Source of the DNA: an uncultured Candidatus Binatia bacterium
GTDB taxonomy: Bacteria; Desulfobacterota; Binatia; Bin18
NCBI GenBank assembly: GCA_965243735.1
Contig: CBDEVZ010000008.1
Span: 1,624,302-1,688,301, forward strand
Reading direction: 5' to 3'
Length of the DNA stretch: 64,000 bases
This document shows, in pieces, positions 4,643-42,667 of this stretch. Numbering within the stretch: the stretch's first letter is position 1; every line of letters begins with the position of its first letter. Under the pieces are notes generated by a model, which saw only the letters and a list, made by a program, of their open reading frames with translations, was not told the origin of the DNA and searched no databases. The translations under genes and the position numbers were made by a program.

Positions 4643-4644
4643 GC

Positions 4645-4770
4645 CAACCCCGGCGGCCCTGCTGGGGTTGGTGCTCCCCGCTCATTCCTTTTCCCCCCTT
4701 TGTCCGTTTTTTCCGTGCTTTCCTGCCCATTTGAGCAGCGCACTTTTCCGGCCAGCCGGGTATAGGCAGC
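4645..4770 (+). promoter_or_regulatory. Conserved post-stop module M1: GC hairpin (4645-4672), CT-rich tract (4681-4722), 18-bp palindrome CTGCCCATTTGAGCAGCG (4723-4740), TATAGG box (~4763)
   Basis: Same arrangement recurs after six other CTD genes at a fixed distance from the stop. CCAACCCC...GGGGTTGG inverted repeat. TGCCCA/TGGGCA half-sites. Confidence 0.45.
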
Positions 4771-4886
4771 GAGGTCTGAGCCTGCGCCCGGCCCTTGGCC
4801 GGTATTGCCGGAGTACGCGGAAGCACGAATGCGCATGAGGACGGAGCCTGACCCCGAACAGTGAAGGCTAACAGACATCACATAAT

Positions 4887-11279: not shown

Positions 11280-11285
11280 GCCCCG

Positions 11286-11508
11286 CCAGAGCTAGGGCGT
11301 TTCACGTTAGGCTGTAGTCATGCCGTTCCGCTCTCGTTCTGCTGGCCGCGATCCGATATCCCTGCTTCGACTTCGCTCCGCTACGCTCAGCACGAACGGG
11401 AGACCGTTAGTCCTGAGCCTGTCCTGAGCCGTGTAGGTCAGGTTAGCCGGAGGCGTAACCTGACATCCCGTACGTGTCGGATTACGCTCCGCTCATCCGA
11501 CCTACTAC
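11286..11508 (+). repeat. MITE-like palindromic repeat (halves A+B) inserted at the 3' end of the preceding gene
   Basis: Half A (11286-11400) matches the reverse complement of 44700-44800. Half B (11428-11508) is near-identical to 54456-54537 and to the reverse complement of 49715-49796. B contains two 9-bp-stem hairpins: GTCAGGTTA-N10-TAACCTGAC and GTCGGATTA-N8-TAATCCGAC. Confidence 0.6.
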
Positions 11509-11586
11509 TTCCCGCATCCGGGCGAGACCGTCACGCTCACCTGGCAGGAGTCCAGCCAGAACTTTGTCCTCACCGACGTGGAGTGA
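11509..11586 (+). repeat. Imperfect ~78-bp duplicate of the last ~25 codons + stop of the CTD gene (cf. 11202-11279)
   Basis: CTTCCCGCATCCGGGCGAGACCGTCACGCTCAC...GTGGAGTGA is repeated with 5 mismatches. The two copies encode WQQTSQNFVLTDVE* and WQESSQNFVLTDVE*. Confidence 0.6.
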
Positions 11587-11706
11587 GCCCCGCCGGGGGC
11601 AGTCACCACCTACTCGGGCCTCTTTTTTCCCATTTTTCGTTTTTTCTTGTCCTTTCTACCCATCTGGGCAGCGATATTTTCATACCGATGTGGTGTGGGC
11701 AGCAGA
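11587..11706 (+). promoter_or_regulatory. Post-stop module M2: hairpin GCCCCGCCGGGGGC (11587-11600), CT tract, palindrome CTACCCATCTGGGCAGCG (11656-11673), GTGTGGGCAG box (~11694)
   Basis: Member of the conserved module family described for M1. Confidence 0.4.
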
Positions 11707-11748
11707 ACTCTTCGCTTGGTGTCCGCTTGGGCTTCGGAGTTGGCTGAT

Positions 11749-12054
11749 ATGCATATTGAACACATGGGTTTGCCTGCCGCCTCCCCAGACAGGGGAAGTC
11801 GGGAGTGGGAGGCGGGACGACAGGAACGGGCCAGGTCGCTGATAAACGGGCGGTTCCTCGCCGCGCTGCCCGTCCTCGTCCTGATGACCCTGGTGGTCAA
11901 CGGGGCGACCGTGGCGGGCACGGTACGGACATTGGACGGAACCTATCATATCCGCTCGGTGGGTGACGGCTTATACGCCATCAGCGAGGTAGAGGAGCCT
12001 TCGCTCAACTGCGGGGTCGAGGAGCCCCATGCTGAGACGGATCACCAGCATTGA
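11749..12054 (+). CDS. Small (~101 aa) protein with hydrophobic segment and C-terminal ...LVVNG.TV.GTVR...IRSVG.GLY.ISEV.E.PLNCGVE.PH.ETDHQH; propeptide-like partner of the downstream metzincin
   Basis: ORF 11647..12054, trimmed to ATG 11749 because the listed 11647 start overlaps palindrome M2. Paralog of ORF 22959..23579. Its TGA stop overlaps the TTG start of the next gene (ATTGA). The NCGVEEP motif resembles a metzincin cysteine switch. Confidence 0.5.
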   Translation: MHIEHMGLPAASPDRGSREWEAGRQERARSLINGRFLAALPVLVLMTLVVNGATVAGTVRTLDGTYHIRSVGDGLYAISEVEEPSLNCGVEEPHAETDHQH

Positions 12055-15000
12055 CGACATCGCCGGCCTCCTGGACTCTCTCCCGACACCTCATACGCCT
12101 GCTGCTCGTGGTGCTCGTGCTCCTGCCCTGCTTGCCAGGGGGGCTCGTCCACGCGCAGTCGGTGATTGATGTCGCCGTCTTCTATACGACCGCCGCCAAA
12201 GACGATGAGGGCGGGACCGATCAGATCAAGACCAAGATCGACGAGATGGTTGCAGCGACCAACCTCGCCTACGCAGACAGTGGCGCGAACCAGACCATCA
12301 AATTGGTGCATGTAGGAGAAGTAGCATACACCGCGTCGGACAGGCTGAGTACAGATCGCAGTCGTCTCGAGAATCCGTCGGACGGCCATATGGACGAAGT
12401 CCACGCCACTCGTGACCGAGTCTGGGCGGACATCGTCATACTGCTCCGCCGTCCGGGCGACGTAGGGGGGGTGGCGTCCCTGATGCACACGCTATCGACG
12501 GACCATGCCGCCGAAGCCTTTGCCGTTTCTACCGTCCACGCCGGCAATTTCATGCATGAACTGGGCCACATCATGGGGCTTGCCCATGACCGGTATGAAG
12601 CCTGCTCGCACGATACAAGCAATCCGCAGTGTCCCACGCTGGTGACACCCTACGCGTATGGCTATGTGAACCAGGAGGCGTTTGAGTCGGGAGCGTCATC
12701 ATCAAAACGGTGGCGCACGATCATGTCATACTCTAATCAGTGTGACGATGCCGGGGTTTCCTGTTCCCCGAGCTTGCTCCGCTTCTCCAATCCAAATAAG
12801 ACCTACCGGGGCGATCCCATGGGCGCGGCCGGTACCCAGTTCACGAACGATCTGGACGGGCCGGTCGATGCGGCGCGCACCCTTAACGACACCCGCCGGA
12901 CCGTGGCGAACTTTCGGCAGGGGCGAGCCGTGCAGGTGAGCTTTGGGTCCGCGACCTACGCGGCGACCGAAGGGGGGCGGGCGCTCGTGGCGGTGAAGCT
13001 GAACACTGCGCCGGGCCGGGAGTTGGTCATTCCGCTCACGGCGCGGAGCACGGACGGGGCGTGGTCCGGCGACTATAGCCTGCCGACGAGCGTGACCTTC
13101 AGCTCCACCGCTGTCAGAAAGACCTTCATCTTCGAGGTCACCGACGACGCCATCGACGAGCGCGCCGAGACCGTCGAGCTGGGCTTCGGGCTGCCGCTGC
13201 CCGGCGGCGTCACCGTGGGCAGTCAGGACAGTGCGACAGTGACCCTGCGGGACAACGATCCCGCGACAACCGCCGCCCCGCACATCAGCACGGTCGCCAT
13301 CACCTCGGACCCTGGGCCGGGCGGCGTCTACTCCGTCGGCGATCAGATCGAGGTGACGGTCGTCTTCACCAAGCCTGTGACCGTGATCGGGACACCCGTG
13401 CTCGCGCTGACGGTCGGCACGGATACGCGCCAGGTGCTGTGTCGGGACGCGGCGAGCGAGACCCTGACGTGTGCCGACAGCGTTCCGCTGGGCGCCAGTG
13501 ACGCCGACGGGGTGAGCGTCGCGGCAAACAGCCTGAGACGGGCCGGGGCGACGATCCGGGACGCCGACAACCAGAACGCCACCCTGACCCATGCCGCCGT
13601 AGCCGCTGACAGCGGCCACGCCGTGGACGCGGTGAAGCCGGTGTTGCAAACCGCGACCGTGGATGGCGGGACAGTAAAATTGACGTATAACGAAGCGCTG
13701 GACGAGACCTCAGTTCCCACAGCGGACGCTTTTACGGTGAGCGTCGATGGGACGACCCGGCCGATTGACAGCATACAGATATCCGGGCAGGTCGTCACGC
13801 TGAGACTGGTCTCCTGGATACGTGCCGGCCGACTCGTGCGGCTGAGATACCGTCTCCACGGCCGCGACTTCATTCAGGACGTGCCCGGTAACCTCGCCCT
13901 GGCTTTTTCCAACCAGACGGTCCAGAACCTGACCCCGGAGCCGGTGTACGACGCGGACGCGGACGGGCTGATTGAAATCACGACCCTGGCCCAGTTGGAT
14001 GCGATCCGGCACGATCTGGACGGTGATGGCACGCCGACGGACACCGGGGCAGCAGCCTATGCCACAGCGTTTCCCGATGAGATACGGGTCGTCTGCGACA
14101 CCAGTAGCGAGGTCTGCGAGGGGTATGAGCTGACGGCCGACCTGGACTTCGACACCGACGAGGACGGGCAGGTCGATGCGGAAGACACCGCCTACTGGAA
14201 CGACGGGAAGGGCTGGCAACCCATCGGCACGAGTGCTGACGCGTTCCATGCGATGTTTGAGGGCAACGGCCACACCATCCGCCATCTCTTTGTTGATCGG
14301 GACACTTCCTACACGGGACTGTTCGGTCAGACAGGCTATCACTGCGATATCCGTGGTGTCGGGCTGATCGATGTCGAAGTGACGGGGAACAACTACGTCG
14401 GAGGACTGGTCGGAGACAATGGTGGCCTGATTCACGCCAGCTACGCGACCGGGCGGGTGACGGGGAACAGCGACATCGGGGGGCTGGTCGGGAGAAATGC
14501 TGGCGGCGGGATCACGACCAGTTATGCGACTGGGCGGGTGACGGGCGTGTCGCGGGTGGGGGGGCTGGTCGGAGACAATGGCAGTAGCTTTGGCTTTGGC
14601 GCGATCACGGCCAGCTACGCGACCGGACGGGTGCCGGGCCAGGACCGGGTGGGGGGGCTGGTCGGGAGCAACGGTGGCACGATCACGGCCAGCTACGCGA
14701 CCGGGCGAGTGACAGGCCGCCGGGTGCGGGTGGGGGGGCTGGTTGGATACAATGTTGGTGGCACGATCACCACCAGCTACTGGGACACGGCCACCTCGGG
14801 CCGGTCGAGCGGGTCTCTTGGGACGGGCCAGACCACCGCCCAGTTGCAGACGCCTACCGGCTATAGCGGGATTTATGCGGACTGGAACGTGGACCTGGAC
14901 GGCGATGGTACGGACGACGACCCGTGGCACTTCGGCTCAGGGAGCCAGTATCCGGCGCTGCGGGTAGACTTTGACGGGGATGAGACGGCGAGCTGGCAGG

Positions 15001-18000
15001 AGTTCGGCTATCAGCTCCGCGCCGGTTCGACCCTGACGACGATGGCCGAGACGGGGCCCATGGAGCTGAGCTGGACGGCGGCGGACGTGAGTGATTGGAC
15101 CCCCGCGCCGGACGTGACCTACGCCGTCTACCGCAACACCGGCTCGACACCCGTCGCGCAAGACCTCACCGCGCGCGAGTATGCCGACCCCGCTGTGATC
15201 CGTGGCACCACCTACGCCTACCAGGTGGCTGCGGTGGTGGATGGGGGGGAAGCCGCCCGCAGTGGGCTCGTAGAGGCGACCGCGCCCAACCAGCCGCCGA
15301 TGTTCGATGACGTGACCGGCACGGCCCGCACCATCGCCGAGAACACGCCGGCGAACCGGCCCATCGGGGAGCGGGTGACGGCGACGGACCCGGACGGCGA
15401 CCAACTGACCTACTACCTGGAAGGCACGGACGCGGACTTCTTTTCCATCACTGGAAGGACCGGCCAGCTACGGACCAAGGCCGCGCTGGACTACGAGACC
15501 CAGGACACCTACGCAGTCACCGTGGCGGTCCGGGACAGCAAGGACATCAACGACACGGCCGACATGGCGATGGATGATGAGATCGATGTGACCATCACCG
15601 TTGCCGATGTGAACGAGGCGCCGGTGTTCGATGCGAGTCTCCCCACCACCTACCGTGTGGCCGAGAATACGCCACGGGGCCAGCGTATCGGGGTCTTCTC
15701 CGCTATGGACCCGGACACCTTGACCCCGGACTATGCCGACCTGACCTACAGTCTGAGCGGCACCGACGCCGCAGTGTTCTTCCTTGACCCCATCACCGGG
15801 GAGTTACAGACCCGCGAACCCCTGGACTACGAGAGCCGGCACACCTATCAGGTCGCCGTGGCGGTTCGCGACGGCAAGGATGCCGACGGCGTTGAAGCGC
15901 TGACGGAGACGGATGCCGAACTTGCGGTGACGATCACTGTCCTGAACGTGGATGAAGCGGGCATGGTCGCGCTGTCGTCAAGCCTGCTGCAGGAGAAACG
16001 GGCGCTGACGGCCACACTGAGCGACGTGGACGGGACGCTGAGCGCCATCACGTGGCAGTGGGCGCGGTCTCCCGACCAGACCACCTGGACCGACATCCCC
16101 GGGGCGATGTCCAGCGGGGCGCTGACGGCGACCTACACGCCGGACGCGACCGACGTGGGGCAATACCTGCGGGCGAGGGCGATGTACACCGACGGCCACA
16201 GCATGGGGAAGACCGCCCAGGCGGTGACGGGCACCACAGTGCAGGCCGCCCCGCAGGTACGGTTGGTGCTGTCGCCGGATGCGTCGATCACGGAGAGCGG
16301 CACGGGGAACACCGTCACCGTGACCGCCGAACTGACGCCGGCGGCTGAGGACGAGACGGCGGTGAAGCTGAGCGAGATGCCGGAGCACTACACCTTGAGC
16401 GGCACCACCCTGACCATCCCGCTGGGCGCCACGCACAGCAACGCCGTGACACTGACGGCTACGGACGACGCCGTGGACGGGCCGGAGGAGACCAAGGCAA
16501 TCCCTGTCACGGGGATACTCACCAAGAACCTCCTGGTGACCGCTCCGGATGCGGTCACGCTTCGCATCACGGATGACGATACCCGCGGAGTGATGGTCAC
16601 CCCGACCGAGCTGACCGTAGAAGAAGGTTCGTCCGAGGACTACGAGGTGATCCTGACTTCCGAGCCGACGGAACCGGTGACCGTGACGGTGACCGCGCCG
16701 ACGAACCCGGACGTGACCGTGAACCGGACCGAGCTGGTCTTTCAGCCGGGGCGCTGGAATACGGCGCAGCCAGTAACAGTGGCGGCGGCGCAGGACCCCA
16801 CCGCCGATGACGAGCCGGCGACGATCAGCCACACGGTGAGCGGCGGGGACTACACCGGAGAAAGCGTGGAACCGGTGGCCGTGACGATCGAAGACGACGA
16901 GGGGCCATCCACGGCGGTCGTGCTGAGCGTGCAGCCACCGACGGTGGGAGAAGGAAGCAGCCGGACGGTGACGGTGAGGGGCAGCCTCAATCGGGCGCTG
17001 CGCCAGCAGGCGACCCCGGTGAGTGTGGAGGTCGAGGCGGGCACGGCCACACAGGGCACGGACTTCACCGCCATATCGCCCTTCACCCTGACAATTCCGG
17101 CGAACACGAAGAGCGGGACGGCAACCTTCACCCTGACGCCGGTAGACGACAGCCTGGATGAGCCGGATGAGACCGTGACGGTGAGCGGCAGTACCACAGT
17201 TGGGCTGGATGTGACCGATGCGTCGCTGACCATCACCGACACCGACGCGCCGCCCACGGTGACACTGATCCTGACCCCGGACGCAATCGGCGAAGACGGT
17301 GGGCAGAGCACGGTCACGGCGACGCTCAGCCATCCGTCGAGTGCGGCGACGGAGGTCGCAGTGGCGGTCACGGCAGACGCGGACGTCGTGCGACAAAGCG
17401 GCACCACCCTGACGATTGCAGCCGGAGAGACAGCCAGCACCGGGACCGTGACGCTGACGGCGGTGGACAACTCCGTCGACGCGCAGGACACGCTGGTGAC
17501 GGTGAGCGGGCAGGCAGACAACGCGCTGGCTGTGAACGGGCCGGCTGCGGCCACGTTGACCATCACCGATGACGATCCGCCGGAGGTGGAGGGCGAGAGC
17601 GCTCCACAGTACGTGGAGCACGACACCGCGCCGGTGGCCACGTACACGGCCACGAACCCGGCCGGCGGCAGGTTGACGTGGTCTCGGTCCGGGCCGGATG
17701 CGAGCGAGTTCCGTGTCGACCAGAACGGCGTGCTGCGCTTCGTTGCGCCACCCGACTTTGAGGCGAGGCGGAGCAATGTCTACCACGTGACGGTCGCCGC
17801 CTCCGACGGAACCCGCACCGGCTCCCTCGCTGTCACCGTCACTGTGCAGGATGCCCCCGGTACGGTCCGCCTGTCTCCGGCGCAGCCCCGGATCGTCTCG
17901 CCGCTGCGCGCGACGCTGCGCGACCCGGACGGGGTGGAGACGGTCGCCGAGTGGTGCTGGGAGCGGTCCCGCTACCACGACTTTCAGACCGATAGCAGCC

Positions 18001-19100
18001 TCCTTGCCTGCACCGTCACCGACAGCGCCGCCGCCACCTATCAACCGGAGGACGCCGACCTCGGCTACTATCTGCGGGCCACCGCGACCTATACCGACGG
18101 CCACGGCGCGACCAACAAAACGGCGGCGGCGGCCACGACCACGACCGTCTCGGTTCGGCCGCCCCCGTCTCAGGGCGGTGGCGGGAGCAGCGGCGGCAGC
18201 GGCAGTAGCAGCGGCGGTGGCGGTCAGCCGCAGGAAGCCCCCATCGGATATTTGGAGAACCCGGGGACTCATTCCTTTCAGAGTGGGATCGGCATCATTT
18301 CGGGTTGGGTGTGTGCGGCGGAGACCGTGGAGATAGAGCTTGCCGGCGTGCGGCAGCCGGCGGCGTACGGCACGGCGCGGCTGGACACCCACGGCGTGTG
18401 CGGAGATGCGGACAACGGGTTTGGGTTGCTGCTCAACTGGAACCTGCTGGGCGACGGCGCACATGAGGTCGCGGCCTACGTGGATGGTATTGAGTTGGGC
18501 CGGGCGACGGTGACGGTGACGACGCTGGGGGAGGAGTTCGCGCGGGGGGTGAGCGGGGAGTGCACCGTCGAAGACTTTCCGAGTGCGGGCGAGGGGGTGC
18601 GGTTGGTGTGGCAGGAGGCGCAGCAGAACTTCGTGCTGGCCGAGGGCAGGGCGCCTACGGGCGTGCACCGGTCGGGAACCGCCAACGTAGGCTATCTGGA
18701 GAACCCGAGTCCGCACTCGTTTCAGAGTGGCATTGGGGTCATCTCGGGTTGGGTGTGCGAGGCCGAGGAAGTCGTCATCACGCTCGGAGACCTGGCCCCA
18801 CAGGCAGCGGGCTATGGCACGGAGCGGCTGGACACGCGAGATGTCTGCGGAGACACGGACAACGGCTTCGGGTTGTTGTTCAACTGGAATTTGCTCGGTG
18901 ATGGGGAACATGTGGTCGTGGCGGTCGTGGACGACGTGGAACTGGGCCGGACCACCGTGCGGGTGACGACCCTGGGCGAGGAGTTCGTACGGGGAGCCGA
19001 GGGGGAATGTACCGTCCCGGACTTCCCCAGTCCGGGGGAGCGTGTGACGCTCACCTGGCAGCAGAACAGTCAGAATTTTGTCGTCACGGGAGTGGAGTGA
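12051..19100 (+). CDS. Giant secreted metzincin: signal peptide, reprolysin-like Zn-metalloprotease domain (HELGHIMGLAHD), Calx-beta, Ig-like (SwmB-like), GLUG-like Gly-rich repeats (GGLVG...SYATGRV), FN3, cadherin repeats, Calx-beta array, Gly/Ser linker, tandem novel CTD (A ~18247-18650, B ~18690-19097); no PPC
   Basis: 2349-aa ORF. HExxHxxGxxHD zinc site. Repeated GGLVG motifs. Cadherin-like DPDGD...LDYE. The CTD tandem is the same as in the other giants. Start listed as TTG 12051; GTG ~12108 is an alternative. Confidence 0.85.
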   Translation: MTTSPASWTLSRHLIRLLLVVLVLLPCLPGGLVHAQSVIDVAVFYTTAAKDDEGGTDQIKTKIDEMVAATNLAYADSGANQTIKLVHVGEVAYTASDRLSTDRSRLENPSDGHMDEVHATRDRVWADIVILLRRPGDVGGVASLMHTLSTDHAAEAFAVSTVHAGNFMHELGHIMGLAHDRYEACSHDTSNPQCPTLVTPYAYGYVNQEAFESGASSSKRWRTIMSYSNQCDDAGVSCSPSLLRFSNPNKTYRGDPMGAAGTQFTNDLDGPVDAARTLNDTRRTVANFRQGRAVQVSFGSATYAATEGGRALVAVKLNTAPGRELVIPLTARSTDGAWSGDYSLPTSVTFSSTAVRKTFIFEVTDDAIDERAETVELGFGLPLPGGVTVGSQDSATVTLRDNDPATTAAPHISTVAITSDPGPGGVYSVGDQIEVTVVFTKPVTVIGTPVLALTVGTDTRQVLCRDAASETLTCADSVPLGASDADGVSVAANSLRRAGATIRDADNQNATLTHAAVAADSGHAVDAVKPVLQTATVDGGTVKLTYNEALDETSVPTADAFTVSVDGTTRPIDSIQISGQVVTLRLVSWIRAGRLVRLRYRLHGRDFIQDVPGNLALAFSNQTVQNLTPEPVYDADADGLIEITTLAQLDAIRHDLDGDGTPTDTGAAAYATAFPDEIRVVCDTSSEVCEGYELTADLDFDTDEDGQVDAEDTAYWNDGKGWQPIGTSADAFHAMFEGNGHTIRHLFVDRDTSYTGLFGQTGYHCDIRGVGLIDVEVTGNNYVGGLVGDNGGLIHASYATGRVTGNSDIGGLVGRNAGGGITTSYATGRVTGVSRVGGLVGDNGSSFGFGAITASYATGRVPGQDRVGGLVGSNGGTITASYATGRVTGRRVRVGGLVGYNVGGTITTSYWDTATSGRSSGSLGTGQTTAQLQTPTGYSGIYADWNVDLDGDGTDDDPWHFGSGSQYPALRVDFDGDETASWQEFGYQLRAGSTLTTMAETGPMELSWTAADVSDWTPAPDVTYAVYRNTGSTPVAQDLTAREYADPAVIRGTTYAYQVAAVVDGGEAARSGLVEATAPNQPPMFDDVTGTARTIAENTPANRPIGERVTATDPDGDQLTYYLEGTDADFFSITGRTGQLRTKAALDYETQDTYAVTVAVRDSKDINDTADMAMDDEIDVTITVADVNEAPVFDASLPTTYRVAENTPRGQRIGVFSAMDPDTLTPDYADLTYSLSGTDAAVFFLDPITGELQTREPLDYESRHTYQVAVAVRDGKDADGVEALTETDAELAVTITVLNVDEAGMVALSSSLLQEKRALTATLSDVDGTLSAITWQWARSPDQTTWTDIPGAMSSGALTATYTPDATDVGQYLRARAMYTDGHSMGKTAQAVTGTTVQAAPQVRLVLSPDASITESGTGNTVTVTAELTPAAEDETAVKLSEMPEHYTLSGTTLTIPLGATHSNAVTLTATDDAVDGPEETKAIPVTGILTKNLLVTAPDAVTLRITDDDTRGVMVTPTELTVEEGSSEDYEVILTSEPTEPVTVTVTAPTNPDVTVNRTELVFQPGRWNTAQPVTVAAAQDPTADDEPATISHTVSGGDYTGESVEPVAVTIEDDEGPSTAVVLSVQPPTVGEGSSRTVTVRGSLNRALRQQATPVSVEVEAGTATQGTDFTAISPFTLTIPANTKSGTATFTLTPVDDSLDEPDETVTVSGSTTVGLDVTDASLTITDTDAPPTVTLILTPDAIGEDGGQSTVTATLSHPSSAATEVAVAVTADADVVRQSGTTLTIAAGETASTGTVTLTAVDNSVDAQDTLVTVSGQADNALAVNGPAAATLTITDDDPPEVEGESAPQYVEHDTAPVATYTATNPAGGRLTWSRSGPDASEFRVDQNGVLRFVAPPDFEARRSNVYHVTVAASDGTRTGSLAVTVTVQDAPGTVRLSPAQPRIVSPLRATLRDPDGVETVAEWCWERSRYHDFQTDSSLLACTVTDSAAATYQPEDADLGYYLRATATYTDGHGATNKTAAAATTTTVSVRPPPSQGGGGSSGGSGSSSGGGGQPQEAPIGYLENPGTHSFQSGIGIISGWVCAAETVEIELAGVRQPAAYGTARLDTHGVCGDADNGFGLLLNWNLLGDGAHEVAAYVDGIELGRATVTVTTLGEEFARGVSGECTVEDFPSAGEGVRLVWQEAQQNFVLAEGRAPTGVHRSGTANVGYLENPSPHSFQSGIGVISGWVCEAEEVVITLGDLAPQAAGYGTERLDTRDVCGDTDNGFGLLFNWNLLGDGEHVVVAVVDDVELGRTTVRVTTLGEEFVRGAEGECTVPDFPSPGERVTLTWQQNSQNFVVTGVE

Positions 19101-19230
19101 CGCCGGTCTCGCACTCTTCCGGGGCGGGTGCGGCCTGTTCGGCCTTCTTTTTTCTCGTGGTCCTGTTTTTTTGGTCTTTGCTGCCCATTTAGGCAGCGCA
19201 TTTCTCCTCCCAATCGAGTACAGGCAGGGA
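19101..19230 (+). promoter_or_regulatory. Post-stop module M3: weak hairpin + T-tract (19141-19180), palindrome CTGCCCATTTAGGCAGCG (19181-19198), GAGTACAGGCAG box (~19216)
   Basis: Conserved module family. GCGTATGCGGACGGAGCCTGACC (~19290) also recurs after gene 1 (~4835). Confidence 0.4.
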
Positions 19231-19329
19231 AGCGGATGCCGGGGGCCGGCCCGTCGGCTGCCCCCGCCGCGCACGCGACAGGACAGATGCGTATGCGGAC
19301 GGAGCCTGACCACCCCCTAACCCCCCCCG

Positions 19330-19545
19330 TTGGTCCGCGTGGCCGCCTTGGTCCTGCTCCCTCTGGCGCTTCTGGCAGCCGGAGGCGGTCCGGTGTTTGG
19401 TCAAGGCGGGACGTCGTGTCCGGGCGGCACCGACCCGACTCCGACGGCCGTGCCGGTCACGACGGTCCCCATTGAGGTCACCTCAACGACCGCCGCCGAC
19501 TTCGTGCTCTACGTGCCATTCGACGTGGCCGGCACGGAGCTGTAG
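19330..19545 (+). CDS. Small (71 aa) putative secreted protein (signal peptide VRVAALVLLPLALLAAGGGPVFGQ)
   Basis: ORF with TTG/GTG start lying between module M3 and the next giant gene. Classic n-h-c signal region. No recognisable RBS and no homolog recognised. Confidence 0.25.
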   Translation: MVRVAALVLLPLALLAAGGGPVFGQGGTSCPGGTDPTPTAVPVTTVPIEVTSTTAADFVLYVPFDVAGTEL

Positions 19546-19559
19546 GTCGATTCAGCCAT

Positions 19560-22456
19560 ATGCAGGAAATTCATATGCGTAGAAGCAGATGCCACCACAT
19601 TCTGTGTGGGGTGGTGGTGGCCATATGCGTGGCAGTTGCTGGCAGTCCTGATGCAGCCCATGGCCAATCCATCCCATCCAGTTCGTTTGTCACCACTTGG
19701 CGCACGACAGCGAACAACCAGTCCATCACCATTCCGGCGAGCGGCACGTATACCATCGACTGGGGCGACGGGACCGTGGAAGAGGACGTGCGGGGCAGGC
19801 AGTCCCACAGGTATGATTCCGCTGGTACCTACACGGTGCGCATATCCGACGGTATCACCAGATTCCACCTCAACGGTCAGGCTGGCGCGAACAGGCTGGT
19901 ATCCATCGAGCAGTGGGGGACTGCCCAGTGGACATCGATGCATGAGGCGTTCCAGGGCGCATCCAACATGGAATACAACGCCACTGATGCGCCTGACCTC
20001 TCGCAGGTCACGGACGCCGCCCTCATGTTCTACGGTGCCTCGTCCTTCAACGGTGACATATCCGACTGGGACGTATCGTCTTTGACCAACATGAAATCCA
20101 TGTTCCACAAAGCCGATGCCTTCAACCAGCCCCTGTCCTCCTGGGATGTCTCGTCGGTGGCCAGCATGGCGCTGATGTTCTCCAGCGCCCGCTCCTTCAA
20201 CCAACCCCTGGACTCCTGGGACGTGTCGTCGGTGACCGAAATGAAGCCATGTTCCAGAACACCGATGCTTTCAACCAATCCCTGGACTCCTGGGACGTGT
20301 CGTCGGTGACCAACATGCGCTCCATGTTCTGGAATGCCCGCTCCTTCAACCAACCCCTGTCCTCCTGGGACGTGTCGTCTGTGACCAACATGTTGTGGAT
20401 GTTCCGCGACACCGGCGCCTTCAACCAGCCCCTCTCCTCCTGGGACGTGTCATCTGTGACCAACATGAACGAAATGTTCCGCGACACCGGCGCCTTCAAT
20501 CAGCCCCTGTCCTCCTGGGACGTGTCGTCTATAACCAACATGCTCGGCATGTTCCGCGGCGCCACCGCCTTCAACGGCGACATCTCCGACTGGGACGTGT
20601 CGTCTGTGACCAGCATGGTGTGGATGTTTTACGGTGCCACGTCCTTCAACCAGCCCCTGGACTCCTGGAACGTGTCGTCTGTGACCAACATGCTCGGCAT
20701 GTTCTTCAACGCCACATCCTTCAACCAGCCCCTGAACTCCTGGAACGTGTCGTCTGTGACCAGCATGACTGACATGTTCTATGGCGCTGTCGCCTTCAAC
20801 CAGCCCCTCTCCTCCTGGGACGTGTCGTCTGCGACCAACATGAGCTACATGTTCGATGGCGCCTCCGCCTTTGAGCAAAACCTCGGAAGCTGGCACATCG
20901 TGCTGGATGACACGTCAATCGACTACGGCGATACACCGGGAACCGTCGGAGGCATATCCGCGCAGAACGCCTTCCTTGACCAGCAGAACCCCGTCTACGG
21001 GATAAGCCCCGGCGGCGACTCCGGCTCCTTCGAGCTGAACGGCACCGACCTCGTGATGAAGGAGGTTCCCACCAAGGACTCGTACACGGTGACCCTCACG
21101 GCGACCGCCACGGGAGACTTTGGCACCGGCAACTCCCGGATCTTCACCATAGCGGTGTCGGGCCTGCCCACCTCTCCGCCGCCACCCCCGCCGCCACCCC
21201 CGAGCAACACCGGGGGTGGGGGAAGCAGTGGCAGCAGCGGGGGCGGGGGCAGCCGTTCCCCGGATCAGCACGGAGACACGCCGGGGCAGGCGACGGCAGT
21301 CACCCCGCACGCCCGCGCGCCGTGGGCGGCGTCCACACCGGGCCACCTCAACAGTCCGAGCGATGTAGATTATTTCACGTTGGAGGTGCCGTATGACGGG
21401 GTGTTGGTGGTCGAGACCGCCGGCTCGACCGACACCGTGGGCACGGTGTGGCAGGCCGGGGTCGAACTGGCCACCGCGACCGGCGGAGGTGCGGGCCAGA
21501 ACTTCCACCTCAGCGTCCCCGTGCAGGCCGGAGCGGTGATGATTGCCGTGGCGAGTGCTGGGCGGACGGGGAGCTATCACTTGGAGACACGCCTGGTGGT
21601 CGGCTTTCTGGAGAACCCCGGCCCCGCCTCCTTCCAGAGCGGCATTGGCGTGGTGTCGGGTTGGGTGTGCACGGCCGAGGTGGTGGAGATCGCGTTGAAT
21701 GGGGCCGTGCAGGAAGCGGGATATGGCACGGCACGGAGCGATACGGCCGGCGTGTGTGGGGACACGGACAATGGGTTTGGGTTGCTGTTCAACTGGAACC
21801 TGCTGGGGGACGGCGAACATGAGGTCGTGGCGTATGTAGACGGCGTTGAACTGGCGCGCACGACCGTGACGGTGACGACGCTGGGCGCAGAATTTCTGCG
21901 GGACGTGACCGGCGAATGCACCGTGGCCGACTTTCCGAGTGCGGGCGAGGGTGTGCGGCTTGTGTGGCAGCAAGCGCAGCAGAACTTTGTCCTGGCCGAA
22001 GGCGCTGTCCCGCGCGGCCCGACCCAGGCCGGGACGGCCGGGGTCGGGTATCTGGAGAACCCGAGCCCCAACTCGTTTCAGAGTGGGATTGGGGTGGTGT
22101 CGGGCTGGGTGTGCGCGGCCGGCTTGGTCGAGATCGAGATTGGGCATCTCACGCCGCAAGTCGCCGCGTACGGGACCGAACGACGCGATACCCAAGCCAT
22201 GTGCGGGGACAGCGGCAACGGATTTGGGTTGCTCTTCAACTGGAATTTGCTCGGTGATGGGGAACATGACGTCATTGCCTACGTAAATAACATCGAGTTA
22301 GGCCGGGTCACGGTGCGGGTGACGACGCTGGGCGAAGAGTTCGTGCGGGGCGCTGTGGGCGAATGCACCGTGGCGGACTTCCCCAGTCCGGGGGAGCGTG
22401 TGACGCTCACCTGGCAACAGAGCAGCCAGAATTTTGTGATCAGCGGAGTGGAGTAG
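19560..22456 (+). pseudogene. Secreted DUF285-type (F..A.AFNQPL.SWDVSSVTNM..MF) repeat protein + poly-Pro/Gly linker + PPC + tandem novel CTD (A 21602-22020, B 22047-22453); split into ORFs 19560..20309 and 20249..22456 by a 1-nt frameshift at ~20244-20248
   Basis: Signal peptide on ORF 19560. At least 12 near-identical 78-bp repeat units. Only 5 nt (aagcc) separate the two Met codons where every other unit has 6. Downstream frame carries DVDYFTL PPC and the CTD tandem. Confidence 0.7.
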
Positions 22457-22629
22457 CGCCTTGTATGATAAGTGATCGCTGTGTCAGCCCGCTCGCGTCA
22501 TATCGGACGCGAGCCGGCATCCAGAAGCCGGGAGGCTGGGGGCGGAATGACGGGCGGCCACACAGAATCATAATTTGTTCTATTGGCAGACCCACTCCGG
22601 CCCTTTAGTCACCTCTCCCTGACGTGTGA

Positions 22630-22769
22630 CGCAAAAAGAAACCCACCCCGGCCATCTCCATCCCCTCCTCGGAGGGGTGCCGCGTGAGCGGCGGGGTGGG
22701 TTCTCTCCGGCCAGCGGCTTCTGCACGGTTGGGAAGAGTAGATGCCGGGTAAGGTGCATCACACGTCCC
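22630..22769 (+). repeat. ~140-nt structured repeat, copy 1 (second copy 46593-46731); possible small RNA or REP-like element
   Basis: GCAAAAAGAAACCCACCCCGGCC...CCCCTCC.GAGGAGGGGTGCCGCG.TAGCGGCGGGGTGGGTTCTCT...GGGTAA.GTGCATCACACGTCC is conserved between copies. Long stem CCCACCCCG/CGGGGTGGG enclosing two inner hairpins. Confidence 0.5.
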
Positions 22770-22847
22770 GAGAGGGGGATTGCTCTGTCCCCTGTCCTGA
22801 GTCCAGTCGAAGGGTGGGTTTCTTATGCGCGCCTGCACGGCCCTCTT

Positions 22848-22927
22848 TTTCCGTCCTTTTTTGCATTTTTCTTATGATTGCTGCCCAACTGGGCAGCGAC
22901 ATTTGCGTATCGACGGGGTATGGATTG
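22848..22927 (+). promoter_or_regulatory. Post-stop module M4 (displaced by repeat insertions): CT tract, palindrome CTGCCCAACTGGGCAGCG (22881-22898), GGGTATGGA box (~22915)
   Basis: Conserved module family. Confidence 0.4.
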
Positions 22928-22958
22928 CGGAATTTTTGTCTGAAGAAGAGGCTGCCCT

Positions 22959-23579
22959 ATGGTACGAGTCTGGTGGTTCGTTTCATGTGTTGCTACCCTG
23001 ATCCGGCCTGTCCGGCGCATGTGTCTGGCCGTCACGGTGGCGGTGCTGACTACGTTGGTCCCGCCCCCGTCCGAGGCCCAGTCCCCGGTTCTCTTTACCT
23101 CGGTCAATGAAACGCCGCCGCCCGGCCCGCTCGGCACCGAGACATTGCGCAGCCGGCTGGTGACCATGGACCTCGGGCAAGTCCAGCACGCCCGGGCTGC
23201 CGCCGCCACGGCGTCCGGCCAGCCTCCGCAGACCAGAGACACGTCCGGGCGTACAGACAAATCCAGCGCGGCGCCCGCCCCAGGTACGCTCCTGACCCTT
23301 AATCTGTTTGACGACGTGGTGGTCACGGGCGTGGTGGAGCGAACCGCGCCGACGTTTTCGGGGGGCTATTCCGTGGCGGGCCACCTGGTCGAAGAGCCGC
23401 TCGGCACCCTGACCCTGGTGGTCAACGGGGAGACGGTGGTGGGCACGGTACGGATGTTGGGGGAGACCTATCAGATCCGCTCGGTGGGAGGCGGATTGTA
23501 TACCATCAGCGAGGTGAAGGAGCACCCGCTCAACTGTGGGGTTGAGGGGCCCCATTCTGAGACGGACCATCAGCATTGA
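22959..23579 (+). CDS. Small secreted propeptide-like protein (paralog of 11749..12054) with C-terminal ...PLNCGVEGPHSETDHQH; translationally coupled to the downstream metzincin
   Basis: Signal peptide (MCLAVTVAVLTTLVPPPSEA). ~55-aa C-terminal block conserved with the first small ORF. Its stop TGA 23577-79 overlaps the TTG start 23576 of the next gene. Confidence 0.55.
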   Translation: MVRVWWFVSCVATLIRPVRRMCLAVTVAVLTTLVPPPSEAQSPVLFTSVNETPPPGPLGTETLRSRLVTMDLGQVQHARAAAATASGQPPQTRDTSGRTDKSSAAPAPGTLLTLNLFDDVVVTGVVERTAPTFSGGYSVAGHLVEEPLGTLTLVVNGETVVGTVRMLGETYQIRSVGGGLYTISEVKEHPLNCGVEGPHSETDHQH

Positions 23580-26500
23580 TACCCCTGCCGTCCTGGAGTG
23601 CTGCTCCACACCTGAAGCGTCTGCTGCTGGCGGCGTTGCTGCTCCTGCCCCTGCTGTCTGGGGGGATGGTGCATGCGCAGTCGGTGATTGATGTCGCCGT
23701 CTTCTACACGACTGCGGCCAAGGACGCCCAGGGTGGGACCGAGCAGATTGAGACCAAGATCGATGAACTCGTCGTAGCGGCCAACATGGCCTACACAGAC
23801 AGCGACGTGAACCAGACCATTAAGCTGGTCGCGGCGGAGGAGGTGGCATACCCGGAGACAGGGAGCATACGGATAGATGTTGAGCGCCTCCGGGACCCGT
23901 CCGACGGCTATCTGGACGAAGTCCACACCATCCGTGACCGGGTCCATGCGGACATCGTCATACTGCTTCGTGCGCAGTGGGACGGAGAGATAAGTGGAGT
24001 CGCATACACAATGGGCACCGAGTCGACGACTCATGCCCCCAATGCCTTCGGCGTCTCCATTGTCGACGCGTCCACATTCGCCCATGAATTGGGCCACATC
24101 ATGGGGCTTCTCCACGACCGGTATGAAGCCTGCCAGCACAACACGGCCACTCCGCAGTGTCGCAGTTCGGTGGTGGCGCCCTATGCGTATGGCTATGTGA
24201 ACCAGGCGGCGTTCGAGTCGGGCGCAGCGACATCGAAACGCTGGCGTACGATCATGGCGACCAACAAGCAGTGCGCTGACAATAGTCCCAGCTTCAATTG
24301 TGACAGAGTGCTCTACTTCTCCAATCCGGACAATTCCTATCCCGATGCTGATGGCGATCCCATGGGCGTGTCCGGCACCCAAGACACCACCGATATAGAC
24401 GGGCCGGCCGACGCGGCGCAGGCGCTCGACGACACCCGCGACACGGTGGCGGACTTCCGGGAGGGTCGGGCCGTGCAGGTGTCGTTTGCGGCGGGGGCCT
24501 ACGCCGTGACCGAAGGCGGGTCGGTGACCGTCACCGTGCAACTGGACGTCGCGCCGGGCCGCACGCTCGATATGCCCATTGCGCTCACGGCGACGAGCCC
24601 GGACGGCGCTTGGCCCGGCGACTATAGCCTCCCGGCGAGCGTGACGTTTAGCGCGAGCCAGACCACGCAGACCTTCACCTTCCGGGCCACCCAGGACACC
24701 CGTCAGGAGGACGAAGAGACGGTCATCCTGGGCTTTGGCACCCCGCTGCCCGCCGGGGTGTCGGTCGGCAGTCAGGCCACGGCCACGGTCACGTTGACTG
24801 ATAACGACACGGTGGCCGCCGCGCCGAGCGTCAGCACGGTGGAGATCGTCTCGGACCCAGGAGCGGCCTACGCCGCCGGCGAAGAGATTGTGGTGGCGGT
24901 GGTCTTCACCAAACCCATCAGCGTGACCGGCGTCCCCAGCATCGAGTTGACGGTCGGGACGAATACGCGGACGGCATTATGTCAAGACGTTGCGAGCGAG
25001 GTGCTGACGTGCACCTACACCGTGGTGGCCGACGAAAGTGACACCGACGGGGTGAGCGTCGTTGCGAACAGCCTGGCGCTCAACGGCGGGACGATCCAGG
25101 ACGAGGAAACCACGCCCCAGGACGCCGCACTCACCCATGATGCCGTTGCGGCGGACAGCGCCCACACCGTAGATGGCGACACGCCGGACCTGGAGAGCGC
25201 GACGGTGGACGAAGACACCGTGACGCTGACGTATGATGAAGCGCTGGACGAGACCTCGGTCCCGAGGGCGAACGCTTTCACGGTGACGGCCGGTAGTACG
25301 ACCGTGTTGACTACCTCCGTTGAGGTGTCCGGGGAGGTGGTGACGTTGGACCTGGTTTCCAGGGTCGCCCATGATGACAGTGTGACGCTGACCTACTCCC
25401 CCTCGACCGGAACCCCCTCGCTGCGGGATGCAGCGGGCAACGCAGCGGCCACCCTCTCCAGCTACGCTCTGACGAACAACACCCCGCAGCCGGTCTATGA
25501 CACGGACGACGACAGGCTGATTGAAATTGCGACCCTGGCCCAGCTCAATGCCGTACGGCACGACCTGGACGGCGATGGCACCCCGACGACCACCGGGGCG
25601 GCGGACTATGCTGCGGCGTTTCCCGACGCGACGCGGGTGGTGTGCGGGGTCACCAGCGGGGGGTGTGCGGGGTATGAGCTGACGGTGGATCTGGATTTTG
25701 ACACCAGCGGCGACGGCCAGATTGACGCGGACGACGAGTACTGGAACAGCGGGGCCGGCTGGGTGCCCATTGGGACGGCATCCGACCGGTTCCGCACAAC
25801 CTTTGAGGGGAATGGCCGCGCCATCAGGCATCTGTTTATCAAGCGGAGCAGTTCCGACAACGTCGGGTTGTTTGGCTACACCGGCTTGTCCAGTGTCATC
25901 CGCCATGCTCGGCTGCGTGATGTCGCGGTGCAGGGGAAACGTGGCGTCGGTGGGCTGGCTGGGACGAACCAGGGAAGTGTTACCGAGAACTCTGCAACCG
26001 GACGGGTGGAAGGAGGAAGCGGCAGTGTCGGGGGCCTGGTTGGCATAAACTTCGGTGAGATTCATGCCAGCTACGCCACGGTCCGGGTCGTTGGCGGCTT
26101 CCATGCCGGCGGGCTCGTCGGCCAGGTCTCCGGCGACATATTCGCCAGCTATGCCACCGGGCGCGTATCGGGAACGAGTGGGGTCGGGGGGTTGGGCGGT
26201 CGCATGGCGACAGACGGTCAGGGCAACATCCAGGCCAGCTACGCCACGGGGTCGGTGTCAGGCAATAACCACGTCGGGGGGCTGATCGGATCTTTCGCCG
26301 CCGGCACGATACACGCCAGCTACGCCACGGGGCGCGTGGCAGGTAATGGCAGTGCTGTCGGGGGCTTGGTCGGAGAGAGCCCCGACGATCCGACAATCAC
26401 AGCCAGCTACTGGGACACACGCACCTCGGGCCGGACGAACAGCGCCGGGGGTGACGGCCAGACCACCACGGCCTTGCAGACGCCCACCGGCTATACCACC

Positions 26501-29500
26501 GGCAGCATCTATGCCGACTGGAACGTGGACCTGGACGGCGATACTACGACCGACGACCCCTGGGACTTCGGCACGGCCAGTCAGTACCCGGCGCTCCGCG
26601 TGGACTTTGACGGTGATGATACGGCAACCTGGGAGGAGTTCGGCCAGCAACTCCGCGAAATCCCGACCCTGACCCCCGACACCTCGACGGTGGGTCAGGT
26701 AGACTTGAGCTGGACGGCGGTCACGAACTCTGCGGGCTCGGCGGCTGTGACCTACACCGTCATGCGCGGCGACACTCCCATCGCCGAGGACCTCAGCACG
26801 ACGACCTACACCGATACCGATGTGACATCGGGGAGCGAATACACCTACCAGGTGATCGCCCTGGTCGACGGCGGGGAGGCTACGCGCAGCGCCCGGCTGG
26901 CGGTGACCGCGACCGCGAACCAGAAACCGGCGTTCGATGAAGGCGACAGCGCCATGCGCAGCGCGGACGAGAACACGGCCTCGGGTGTCAATATCGGGGA
27001 CCCGGTGGCAGCCACCGACATCGACGACACCAGTCTGATCTACACGCTGGGCGGGACGGACGCGACCTCTTTCGACATCGTCTCGACCACCGGACAGTTG
27101 CAGACCAAGACGGCCCTGAACTACGAGGCCAAGCGTCGCTACACGGTCAGCATCTCGGTCCGGGACGGCAAGAACAACGACGGCGAGGCCGACATGACCA
27201 CGGACGACACCATCACCGTGACCATCGATGTCGGCAACCTGGACGAAGCGGGCACGGTGACGCTCTCGGGGACTCCGGCACAGGCAGGGCGGCAACTGAC
27301 CGCGACGCTGAGCGACCTCGACGGCGGTCTGAGTGGCATCTCCTGGCAGTGGGAGCGGTCCAGCGACCAGAGCAACTGGACCGACATCACTGGGGAGACA
27401 TCCACTCAATACACGCCAGTAGCGGGCGACATGGGGGATTATCTCCGGGCCACGGCACGCTATACCGATGGCCAGGGGTCCGGGAAGAGCGCGGCGGCGG
27501 TGACGGCCCAGGTTCAGGCCGCGCCGGTGGTGGAACTGAGACTGTCGCCGCCTCGGATTGATGAGGACGGGGGGACGAGCACAGGGGTGAGCAGGGTCAC
27601 GGCGCATCTGCTGAACAATCGGACCTCACTCGCAAAGACGACCGTGCGCGTAACAGCCACGGCCCTCGCGCCGGCTCAGGCGGGGGATTTTACCCTCAGC
27701 GGCAATCAGCTGACGATCGCGGCAGGGGCATTGGCGAGCACTGAAACGGTAACGATTACCGCTAGAAACAACAATGTGGACGCCCCGGACAAGACGGTCA
27801 CGGTGAGTGGGCTGGCGACCAACTCTGATGGCGTCACCGGCCCGGCCTCGGTGGACCTGACGATCACGGACGACGACCCAGCCCCGAGCGTAGAACTGGT
27901 GCTGTCGCCCGCCCAGATCAGCGAGAACAACCAAGTGAGCACGGTGTCGGCGCGGCTGAGCCATCCGTCGAGCGCGGATACGACCGTGACCGTCTCGTCG
28001 CAGGCCGTGAGCCCGGCAGTGGCGGGCGACTTCATGCTGAGCACAAACACCACGTTGACCATCACGGCAGGGGCAACGGCAAGCAGCGGCACCGCTGTCA
28101 CGCTGACCTCGGTGGATAATTCCACCGACGCCCCGAACAAGCAGGTGACGGTAAGCGGGACGGCGACGAATACGCACGGTATCGCCGGAAACCCGGATAA
28201 TGCCACGCTCTTGATCACCGACGACGAGGGGGCGCCGAGGGTGACACTGACGTTGTCGGAGACGCAGATCGATGAGAGCGGTGCGGATAATAGCGCCACG
28301 CTGGCGGTGACCCTGAGCCATGCGTCGAGTGCGGCGACGACGGTGACGGTCTCGACAGACCCGGCGGAGGCCGTCACACTCAGCCCAAACCCATTGACGA
28401 TCTCGGCAGGGAACACCGAGGGCACAGTGACGCTGACGGCAGTGGACAACGAGATTGATGGGCCGGAGACCAAGCGGGTAACTATCTCGGCGGAGGCGGA
28501 GAACGACCAGGGGGTCACGGACCCGGCCAATAAGACGCTGACGATTGCAGACGATGACAATCCGCCGGTGGTGACGCTGGAGCTGTCGGCTACTCCGATT
28601 GATGAAAACGGTGGGCAGAGCACGCTGACGGCGAGCTTGGACCGGGCATCGAGCCAGCAGATCGTGGTGACGGTGGCGACAGCGACGGAATATGCCTTGA
28701 GTACGCCCCGCACCCTGACCATCCCGGCGGGGAAGACAGCGAGCGAGGGAAACACGGTCACGCTGACGGCCAAGGACAACAACATCGACGCGGCGGACGC
28801 GGAGATCACGGTGGAGGGGACGGCCAACCTGAGTGGGCTGACAGTGACGGGGGTGGAGCTGACCATCACGGATGACGATACGCGCGGGGTGACGGTCAGC
28901 GAGAGCACGCTGTCGATCAAGGAAGGGCAGACCGACACCTATACGGTGGTGTTGGACTCCCAGCCGACGGCGACAGTAACGGTGACGCTGGCCGTCACGC
29001 AGACTGATGACGCCGTGGGCACCAATCAGGCGAGTCTGACGTTCGCGCCGGGGAACTGGAACACGGCCCAGACGGTCACGGTGCGGGCGGCCGACGATAC
29101 GGTGGAGAACATCCCTCCCAAGACAGCGACGATCACGCACACGGTGACGGGCGGCGACTACGGAGAGAACAACGTCCGGGCGGCCTCTGTATCGGTGACC
29201 GTGACCGACGACGAGAGTGCGTCCACGGCGGTAACCCTGCGGGTGAACCCAGAGGCGGTGACCGAGGGGAGCAGCAACCGGACAGTGACCGTGACCGGCG
29301 AGTTGGATGGGGCACCGCGCGGTACTGACACCACGGTGACTATCTCGGTCACATCCGGGAGCGGGGACGAGGCAGCCGTGGAGGGCACCGATTTTGACGA
29401 GGTGGCGGACTTCACGCTGACGATCAAGGCGGGTCAGCCGAGCGGGATGGCAACCTTCACCCTGACGACGGAGAACGACACTATCGATGAGCCGGACGAA

Positions 29501-31786: not shown

Positions 31787-31897
31787 GCCCCACCGGGGTG
31801 AATCCGCGCGGCTTGTTCGCATTTTCTTTCATTTTCTCGGTCCTCTCTGCCCATCTGGGCAGCGTATTTTTCCTGACGATCATGTACAGGCAGTGAA
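31787..31897 (+). promoter_or_regulatory. Post-stop module M5: hairpin, CT tract (31811-31846), palindrome CTGCCCATCTGGGCAGCG (31847-31864), TGTACAGGCAG box (~31884)
   Basis: Conserved module family. Confidence 0.45.
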
Positions 31898-36032: not shown

Positions 36033-36075
36033 CCTGACGGCGACCATCACTAGCGGCGGGATCGCCCTGCACTGG

Positions 36076-41640: not shown

Positions 41641-41689
41641 TTTTTGTCTGGCATCGGTACGCAGTCTGGACCAGAGGCATGACTGGGCT

Positions 41690-42576: not shown

Positions 42577-42667
42577 GCCTCGCTGCCCTGGCAAAAAGGG
42601 CGGGTATTCGATTCCCGCCGCCTCCATTCCTGTTTGATTTATCCTGTTCCCGCCCATTTCTTGACAG

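Follow-up and report, generated by a model that had tools for sequence, protein, structure and literature searches.

Why does a gene for a secreted repeat protein stand in two pieces in the genome of an uncultured Candidatus Binatia bacterium? In a stretch of 64,000 nucleotides (nt) of contig CBDEVZ010000008.1 (assembly GCA_965243735.1; the whole stretch is called the window, and coordinates refer to it), an open reading frame (ORF) that opens with a putative signal peptide (19560..20309, ORF1) is followed in a different frame by one that ends in a tandem C-terminal domain (CTD; 20249..22456, ORF2). The join lies inside an array of DUF285 repeats. The locus could thus represent two genes or one, and a single gene could have been broken in the organism or only in the deposited contig. 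Here, we argue from comparison with relatives that ORF1 and ORF2 are one gene, best annotated as a single frameshifted gene of 960 amino acids (aa). We incline, by no great measure, to the view that the break is a real and recent loss-of-function allele of one secreted, adhesin-like surface-protein gene.

One gene split by a single-base deletion

Eleven canonical DUF285/PARCEL units lie head-to-tail at 20034..20857 on the + strand, each of 75 nt or 25 aa with the motif xAxxFNQPLxSWDVSSVTNMxxMFx. Their 'TGGGACGT' anchors (20067, 20142, 20217, 20291, 20366 and so on to 20816) are spaced by 75 nt throughout, except for one step of 74 nt from 20217 to 20291. Unit 3 reads ATG (20241 to 20243), AAGCC (20244 to 20248) and ATG (20249 to 20251), i.e., 5 nt between Met codons where all other units have 6. 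This confirms the 1-nt deletion noticed in the original prediction, and the resulting separation of the signal-peptide ORF from the CTD-bearing ORF is as described there. The missing base is a C between 20245 and 20246, which turns AAC GCC into AA GCC. It was flanked by A and G, and the site holds no homopolymer, no short tandem tract and no run of more than 3 nt. As the sequence stands, translation from ATG 19575 gives a 244-aa stub that comprises the signal peptide, the beta domain and about three turns of the repeat and ends in 21 out-of-frame residues. Past the break the frame is open for 735 codons (ORF2), which start within a repeat unit and carry no signal peptide; no Shine-Dalgarno sequence precedes ATG 20249. 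The gene and its parts are the following.

19575..22456, + strand: whole disrupted gene, 960 aa with the missing base restored, now ORF1 (19560/19575..20309) and ORF2 (20249..22456)
19575..19664, + strand: signal-peptide-like N-terminus MRRSRCHHILCGVVVAICVAVAGSPDAAHG, with a basic n-region, a hydrophobic core and AHG before Q
19665..19907, + strand: N-terminal beta-rich domain (FVTTW...YTIDWGDG...), matching Pfam PKD_4 below the cut-off (E=0.0018)
19908..20033, + strand: degenerate N-cap turns EQWGTAQWTSMHEAFQGASNMEYNATDAPDLSQVTDAALMFY; tblastn of repeat units extends back to 19905
20034..20857, + strand: 11 canonical DUF285/PARCEL units, of which unit 3 (20184..20257) has 74 nt
20245..20246, + strand: site of the single-base deletion, AA GCC here and AAC GCC (Asn-Ala) in relatives
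20247..20309, + strand: out-of-frame tail of ORF1, PCSRTPMLSTNPWTPGTCRR and stop codon, from translation
20858..20902, + strand: solenoid C-cap GASAFEQNLGSWHIV, with 'FEQNLGxWxIV' conserved in homologues
20903..21169, + strand: Ig-like (cadherin-EC-like) beta-sandwich, from strands in an AlphaFold2 (AF2) model and Foldseek
21170..21262, + strand: Pro-rich and Gly/Ser-rich low-complexity linker, with a 12-nt repeat at 21176..21202 found by Tandem Repeats Finder (TRF)
21263..21598, + strand: domain of ~112 aa before the CTD, with tblastn matches of 37-60% identity at 10083, 36988, 3461 and 30620
21599..22003, + strand: CTD copy 1, a ~135-aa beta-sandwich (tblastn, AF2)
22043..22456, + strand: CTD copy 2 up to the stop codon (...NFVISGVE and stop; tblastn)

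The decisive evidence that the split is secondary is an intact gene in a syntenic relative. By tracing the conserved 206-aa gene downstream (22959..23579) into relatives, we found a syntenic metagenome contig of 39.7 kb (ENA ERZ25069412, ctg837685_10x_l; loci L080 and L081). In the same slot and between the same neighbours, L080 encodes an uninterrupted 960-aa gene (6611..9493) of identical architecture, including the CTD. It is 98.6% identical to the window over 3297 nt, and the sole gap is the deleted C at 20245/20246; the comparison with related genomes proposed in the original prediction thus finds the missing base retained in the nearest relative. Every coding indel but this one in the 20 kb of synteny with L080 is compensated within 45 nt. 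A second homologous locus, L001, which came out of a scan of genome contigs as an 80%-identical homologue, holds an intact 2490-aa gene with three modules, each of a beta domain, a DUF285 array and an Ig-like domain, followed by Calx-beta and a beta-barrel-like C-terminus. Its module 2 is colinear with window positions 19686..21179 (85% nt and 81% aa identity) and reads ATG AAC GCC ATG, in frame, at the position of the break. Five database proteins (P0102, P0078, P0116, P0126 and P0122) are likewise in frame there ('...MNAMFQNTDAFN...'). We rejected the idea that the frameshift marks a recombination junction, as the alignments to L001 module 2 and to L080 run colinear straight through it. When JGI metagenomes were scanned for exact matches to the sequence around the deletion, neither allele was found.

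The L080 gene also shows that the fusion of the DUF285 array to the local CTD, pointed out in the original prediction, is real and exists intact in a close relative. We had considered that this fusion might be unique to the genome studied, as other homologues covered at most 57% of the query; the L080 gene rules this out. The likely true start of the window gene is ATG 19575, which has AGGAA upstream and is the start called in the L080 orthologue. The signal-peptide-like N-terminus, judged by inspection, is tripartite and is conserved in L080, P0126, P0078 and P0116, and the beta-rich domain after it opens every module in the homologues.

The number of repeats is constant among orthologous modules. 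Eleven canonical units at strict 25-aa spacing are present in L080, L001 module 2, P0102, P0078, P0116, P0126 and P0122, a range that extends from 98.6% nt identity (L080) to ~74% aa identity; differing unit counts (8-13) occur only in paralogous modules. The expectation that the array is a recombination or slippage hotspot that changes repeat number did not hold for any orthologous module examined. Exchange of sequence between units is another matter. Relative to L080, double changes between TCC and GAC (Ser and Asp) occur at 20136, 20285, 20660 and 20810 (codons 188, 238, 363 and 413 of the repaired gene). They make up 4 of the 14 nonsynonymous codon differences, affect the same repeat position (PL[S/D]SW) and are in some cases accompanied by an adjacent synonymous change, and both variants are present elsewhere in the array. 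From their pattern, these swaps look like short-patch gene conversion between units and not like independent point mutations.

The units themselves differ from their first description. Their length was given as 26 aa or 78 bp and their DNA as near-identical; the unit measures 25 aa or 75 nt, and all 10 consecutive anchor spacings in the repaired protein are of 25 aa. TRF recovers the tandem array at 20066..20871 (period 75, 10.8 copies, 76% matches, score 693), which substantiates the array as such. Pairwise DNA identity among units averages 78% (range 62-92%, first 60 nt of each unit), the longest exact stretches common to two units are 36, 32 and 27 nt, and no two units are identical, each being unique in sequence. 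A count of at least 12 units holds only if the degenerate turns beside the array are included (~1.7 N-cap turns at 19908..20033 plus the C-cap at 20858..20902); canonical units number 11.

For profile scans the protein was repaired by adding one residue at the break. The HMM search upheld the assignment to DUF285, with 561 bits to Pfam PF03382 (cut-off 25, E=1.4e-171), and NCBIfam TIGR02167 'PARCEL repeat-containing surface protein' matched in 10 stretches with 173 bits (cut-off 30, E=4.9e-52). The founding paper on PARCELs defines the repeat as a canonical tandem unit of 25 residues and 75 nucleotides (PMC2996958), which the window array fits exactly. An AF2 model of 20249-21181, built with 29 homologues, has a mean predicted local distance difference test score (pLDDT) of 94.4 and shows one short strand per 25 residues, followed by a beta-sandwich. 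The model predicts that the array folds as a right-handed leucine-rich-repeat solenoid of the BspA-like type that superposes on LRR proteins, which places it in the LRR superfamily. In Foldseek the best matches of the model are to internalin A, and the search assigns the sandwich after the solenoid (AF2 strands 223-304) to cadherin EC domains with probability 1.0. A sequence search of the DUF285 region against the PDB gave no match to any solved structure.

The family is not confined to Mycoplasma and Firmicutes, from which its presence in a high-GC genome had at first seemed notable. More than 5,000 proteins matched in the homology search at E<=1e-10, and named sources include Flavobacteriia, Phycisphaerales, Cyclobacteriaceae, Promethearchaeota, Cenarchaeum and Ca. 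Spongiihabitans. PARCELs are described as punctately distributed over many clades and G+C contents and as abundant in marine metagenomes (PMC2996958), and DUF285 LRRs have earlier been counted as eukaryotic-like domains with enrichment in sponge metagenomes (PMC7848895, which cites Fan 2012).

Dyad symmetry, the 'palindromic' property of PARCEL DNA, is only marginal in the array. Its best register against its own reverse complement reaches 35% identity, compared to 30.2 +/- 1.0% in 200 mononucleotide shuffles (maximum 32.9%), and no inverted repeats of at least 14 nt were found in the array DNA. Long ORFs cross the array on the - strand (20030..20353, 20197..20499 and 20450..20896) with the repeating translation 'HVGHRRHVPG.QGLVEG'. 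Opposite-strand ORFs occur in many PARCEL regions (PMC2996958); those in the window are a by-product of the repeat, with no evidence that they are genes.

Scanned singly against Pfam at E<=10, the Ig-like domain, the ~112-aa domain and the CTD gave no match. The ~112-aa domain is common to four other CTD genes in the window; by eye it had been taken for a pre-peptidase C-terminal (PPC)-like domain, an assignment that we dropped because no profile backs it. A promoter and terminator scan around the gene stayed at chance level, and an Rfam scan of the whole window found no RNA family.

Real allele or consensus error

If the deletion is real, the allele is predicted to be null for a surface protein, leaving a secreted stub and an untargeted remainder. 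The intact 960-aa form would begin with a signal peptide and a small beta domain, followed by the 11-turn DUF285 solenoid and its caps, then by an Ig/cadherin-like domain, a Pro/Gly linker and the ~112-aa domain, and would end in the lineage-specific tandem beta-sandwich CTD. Going by the model, its solenoid would presumably be shown outside the cell as a binding surface, and the protein would probably be one of many 'eukaryotic-like' surface proteins encoded in a 42-kb island. Loss of a lone C from the AAC codon in repeat unit 3 would stop translation from the signal peptide 21 codons on, and the remaining 735 codons, without a signal peptide or a ribosome-binding site, would not be made as a surface protein.

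There is no sign of decay around the lesion. Measured against L001, the ratio of nonsynonymous to synonymous substitution rates (dN/dS) is 0.25 before the break and 0.35 after it, and differences from L080 comprise 20 synonymous nucleotides and 14 nonsynonymous codons. Because the downstream frame is open and constraint is not relaxed, the deletion is either extremely recent or not real. Three considerations favour a real deletion: the site (AAC GCC) is no homopolymer, the deletion is the only uncompensated coding indel in the 20 kb of synteny, and window ORFs of 6.4-8.2 kb are intact. A scan of third-position G+C (GC3) phase shows no other frame switches.

A further gene of the window is also split. 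An ORF with LRR_8 (x16) and fn3 domains (31893..36032) and a CTD-bearing ORF (36076..38169) that starts within an fn3 domain together make up 31893..38169. This gene is broken by a +1 indel in a run of eight C (C8, 36001..36008), 16 kb from the DUF285 break. The corresponding position has C7 and an intact 1988-aa gene in L081, and in a further locus, L002, it is in frame without a long C run.

The strongest rival explanation is an assembly or consensus error, on which view the organism carries the intact 960-aa gene and the absence of the C is an indel left uncorrected in the deposited contig. We hold this to be nearly as likely as a real null allele, and a serious contender if not the favoured one. 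L080, otherwise 98.6% identical, retains the base, nothing downstream of the break has decayed, and both breaks of the window affect otherwise perfectly conserved genes. At the second frameshift, C8 here and C7 in the relative is typical of long-read homopolymer error. However, the DUF285 site (GAAATGAA followed by GCCATG) is not a homopolymer and is atypical of HiFi- or Illumina-type errors, and ~60 kb of other window coding sequence, including the ORFs of 6.4-8.2 kb, is without a frame break.

Several points weigh against a real loss-of-function allele. A consensus error predicts the same sequence. The second 1-nt frameshift, 16 kb away in a C8 run, is a classic signature of assembly error and makes indel errors in this assembly more likely a priori. 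The total lack of downstream decay is what an error predicts. For the function that would be lost, binding and surface display rest on fold and architecture, and the signal peptide was assigned by eye. As its 64 kb contain two 1-nt frameshifts that a close relative lacks, the window can also serve as an assembly-quality flag.

A bolder proposal takes both 1-nt indels as real population-level on/off alleles that uncouple host-binding 'eukaryotic-like' modules from the tandem CTD as a new sorting or anchoring domain. We consider this improbable. If it were true, a sponge symbiont would use frameshifts between cargo and CTD to vary which surface proteins it displays, and the CTD would be a new export or attachment signal.

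Still less probable is phase variation or programmed recoding in the DUF285 gene itself, i.e., a reversible or translationally bypassed switch that joins the repeat module to its CTD or separates the two; judged on the sequence, both are unsupported. In favour of such a switch, a 1-nt indel separates the N-terminal module from the CTD in two CTD genes of the island, the indel of one of these genes lies in a poly-C tract, and for Mycoplasma agalactiae phase variation of PARCEL lipoprotein genes via a poly-G tract has been suggested (PMC2996958). However, the DUF285 site has no homopolymer or short tandem repeat of the kind that marks simple-sequence-repeat contingency genes, and L002 does not share the poly-C tract of the other gene. 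For a programmed -1 ribosomal frameshift, the local sequence (ACC GAA ATG AAG CCA) offers no slippery X XXY YYZ heptamer, ATG 20249 has no Shine-Dalgarno sequence, and the shift is not conserved, as all homologues examined are in frame.

Finally, it is scarcely credible that ORF1 encodes a short secreted DUF285 protein and ORF2 a CTD protein of its own, each functional independently. A gene caller does list ORF2 as a protein (P0001), and many database homologues of the CTD are short ORFs. Yet ORF2 begins inside a repeat unit and lacks both a signal peptide and a ribosome-binding site, the last 21 residues of ORF1 are out of frame, and the pair is colinear with single genes in L080 and L001; the intact orthologue contradicts this explanation. 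The annotation should be corrected to one 960-aa gene or pseudogene in place of two ORFs.

The tandem C-terminal domain and its island

Positions 1..42600 of the window form an island of giant genes on the + strand for secreted 'eukaryotic-like' proteins. The CTD, a tandem of two ~135-aa copies with conserved Cys residues that ends in '...NFVIxxVE' and the stop codon, closes seven large + strand genes (59..4642, 4887..11279, 12051..19100, 19575..22456, 23576..31786, 36076..38169 and 38292..41519). The copies located by tblastn are listed here.

3785..4639, + strand: tandem CTD
10422..11276, + strand: tandem CTD
18243..19097, + strand: tandem CTD
21599..22453, + strand: tandem CTD
30929..31783, + strand: tandem CTD
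37312..38166, + strand: tandem CTD
40662..41516, + strand: tandem CTD
58419..58835: single CTD copy, at the end of gene 57705..58847

No Pfam or NCBIfam family and no sequence relative in the PDB was found for the CTD, and profiles for CTDs of the type IX secretion system (e.g., PF18962) did not match the C-terminus of the window gene. The database contains 1,601 homologues of the CTD at E<=1e-5, and in none of them does this region carry a Pfam label. The AF2 model of the CTD (pLDDT 83.6) consists of two Ig/fn3-like sandwiches with generic structural neighbours only. In 63 of 71 aligned homologues the protein ends with this domain, usually as '...VE'. A scan of genome contigs found it dozens of times per genome in chromosomes of Ca. 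Binatia metagenome-assembled genomes (MAGs), and it is also present in the actinobacterial sponge symbiont Ca. Poriferisodalis (L051, 5704..6903). The CTD may be a sorting, anchoring or host-binding module.

Many CTD homologues are short ORFs (250-490 aa; e.g., P0128, P0133 and P0138) whose called start lies within the ~112-aa domain, and CTD tails appear to be often called as separate ORFs in other MAGs. Split genes, frameshifts in GC-rich Pro/Gly linkers or gene-calling artefacts could be the cause. A 23-aa remnant resembling the end of the CTD is located at 11509..11577, in the 770-nt gap between genes 4887..11279 and 12051..19100; the surrounding 11401..12001 has a coding-like GC3 phase, and the remnant may be a fragment of a decayed CTD gene.

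Besides DUF285, the CTD genes of the island carry cadherin, fn3, Spondin_N, reprolysin-like M12B, Calx-beta, SWM and matrixin domains, and an arylsulfotransferase-like domain also occurs in the island. The LRR_8/fn3 gene and an ankyrin-repeat gene (41776..42576) sit among the island genes. Such an island is typical of sponge symbionts. Its content differs between relatives: L079, on a 5.08-Mb contig, has a 1232-aa gene with a weak Calx-beta match in the slot of the DUF285 gene, and L081 is without a counterpart of gene 38292..41519. Between 13007 and 33317, identity to L080 is mosaic, ranging from 70 to 100% in 300-nt windows. One block of at least 97%, at ~18.7-22.6 kb, contains the DUF285 gene, another of 97-100% lies at 32.2-33.1 kb, and blocks of 70-80% lie at 14.2-14.8 kb and 28.9-29.5 kb. 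This pattern suggests frequent recombination within the giant surface genes, and the island evidently consists of surface-protein cassettes that vary and recombine.

The 206-aa gene used to find the syntenic contig (22959..23579) is conserved, with 325 homologues of ~190-220 aa, some of which match PF27177. It overlaps the giant M12B-protease gene (23576..31786) by 4 nt, as it does in L079 and L080, which suggests that its product is a translationally coupled partner of that gene. Outside the island, 52001..54000 has a low G+C content (54.6%, window mean 64%) and includes an AAA_15/AAA_21 ATPase gene (52164..53300) that is the sole member of its 90% identity cluster and may be a recently acquired, defence-type gene.

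Housekeeping genes of the window share at least 90% identity with their counterparts in 'Desulfurellaceae'/Binatia MAGs, and Binatota are enriched in sponges (PMC9999580). From these affiliations and the frequency of the CTD in Ca. Binatia MAGs, the host is best described as a sponge-type 'Candidatus Binatia' bacterium. On its own the broken DUF285 copy matters little; the CTD island and the homopolymer frameshift are the more interesting leads. The main pointer of this case is the 42-kb island of giant secreted eukaryotic-like proteins that end in a common tandem CTD, whose role may lie in sorting, anchoring or host binding.

Comparison with known systems

Reference examples of PARCEL/DUF285 proteins are the lipoproteins LppQ and LppC of Mycoplasma mycoides, and NCBI names the family 'BspA family leucine-rich repeat surface protein'. 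The window gene shares with these proteins the tandem units of 25 residues (75 nt), each unique, the motif F..A.sFNqPL.sWDVSsVTnM..MF, and a sporadic distribution that resembles horizontal gene transfer (PMC2996958). It also shares the ORFs on the opposite strand of the array and, judged by inspection, a putative N-terminal signal for membrane or secretion targeting; such a targeting sequence is common in the PARCEL family but not universal. In contrast to the Mycoplasma lipoproteins, the gene has a putative Sec-type signal in place of a lipobox and high-GC codon usage. It further differs from known PARCELs in its C-terminal context of an Ig-like domain and a Binatia-type tandem CTD, and dyad symmetry of its array DNA is only marginal.

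Relatives of the N-terminal part are found in an autotransporter-type DUF285 family represented by the L001 gene (5971..13443), P0126, P0078, P0102 and P0122. Residues 40-537 of the window protein are 81% identical to L001 module 2, with 11 units each, and P0126 and P0078 have nearly the same signal peptide. This homology stops at ...FTIAVSGLP (aa 537). Proteins of the autotransporter type contain one to three modules, then Calx-beta and a beta-barrel-like C-terminus ending in ...ATWTF, whereas the window gene has one module and continues after '...SGLP' with the linker, the ~112-aa domain and the tandem CTD; it lacks the C-terminal beta-barrel-like translocator with ...ATWTF of type V autotransporter-like proteins.

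Among LRR adhesins, we compared Listeria InlA/InlB, Leptospira LIC11098, Treponema TpLRR and the LRR_5 proteins of the BspA-like type in Bacteroides. The DUF285 repeat has 25 residues compared to 22 in internalins, and the anchoring module is different. TM-scores to these adhesins are low, reflecting a different curvature, and there is no sequence similarity to solved structures. The island resembles the eukaryotic-like proteins of sponge symbionts in its combination of cadherin, fn3, Spondin_N, reprolysin, LRR_8, Calx-beta and ankyrin domains, and there is no essential difference from these proteins, the window copy of the DUF285 gene being simply broken. We find no support for mechanistic novelty in the frameshift, and the gene that it interrupts is an ordinary member of the DUF285/PARCEL family, in a lineage and habitat where this family is expected.

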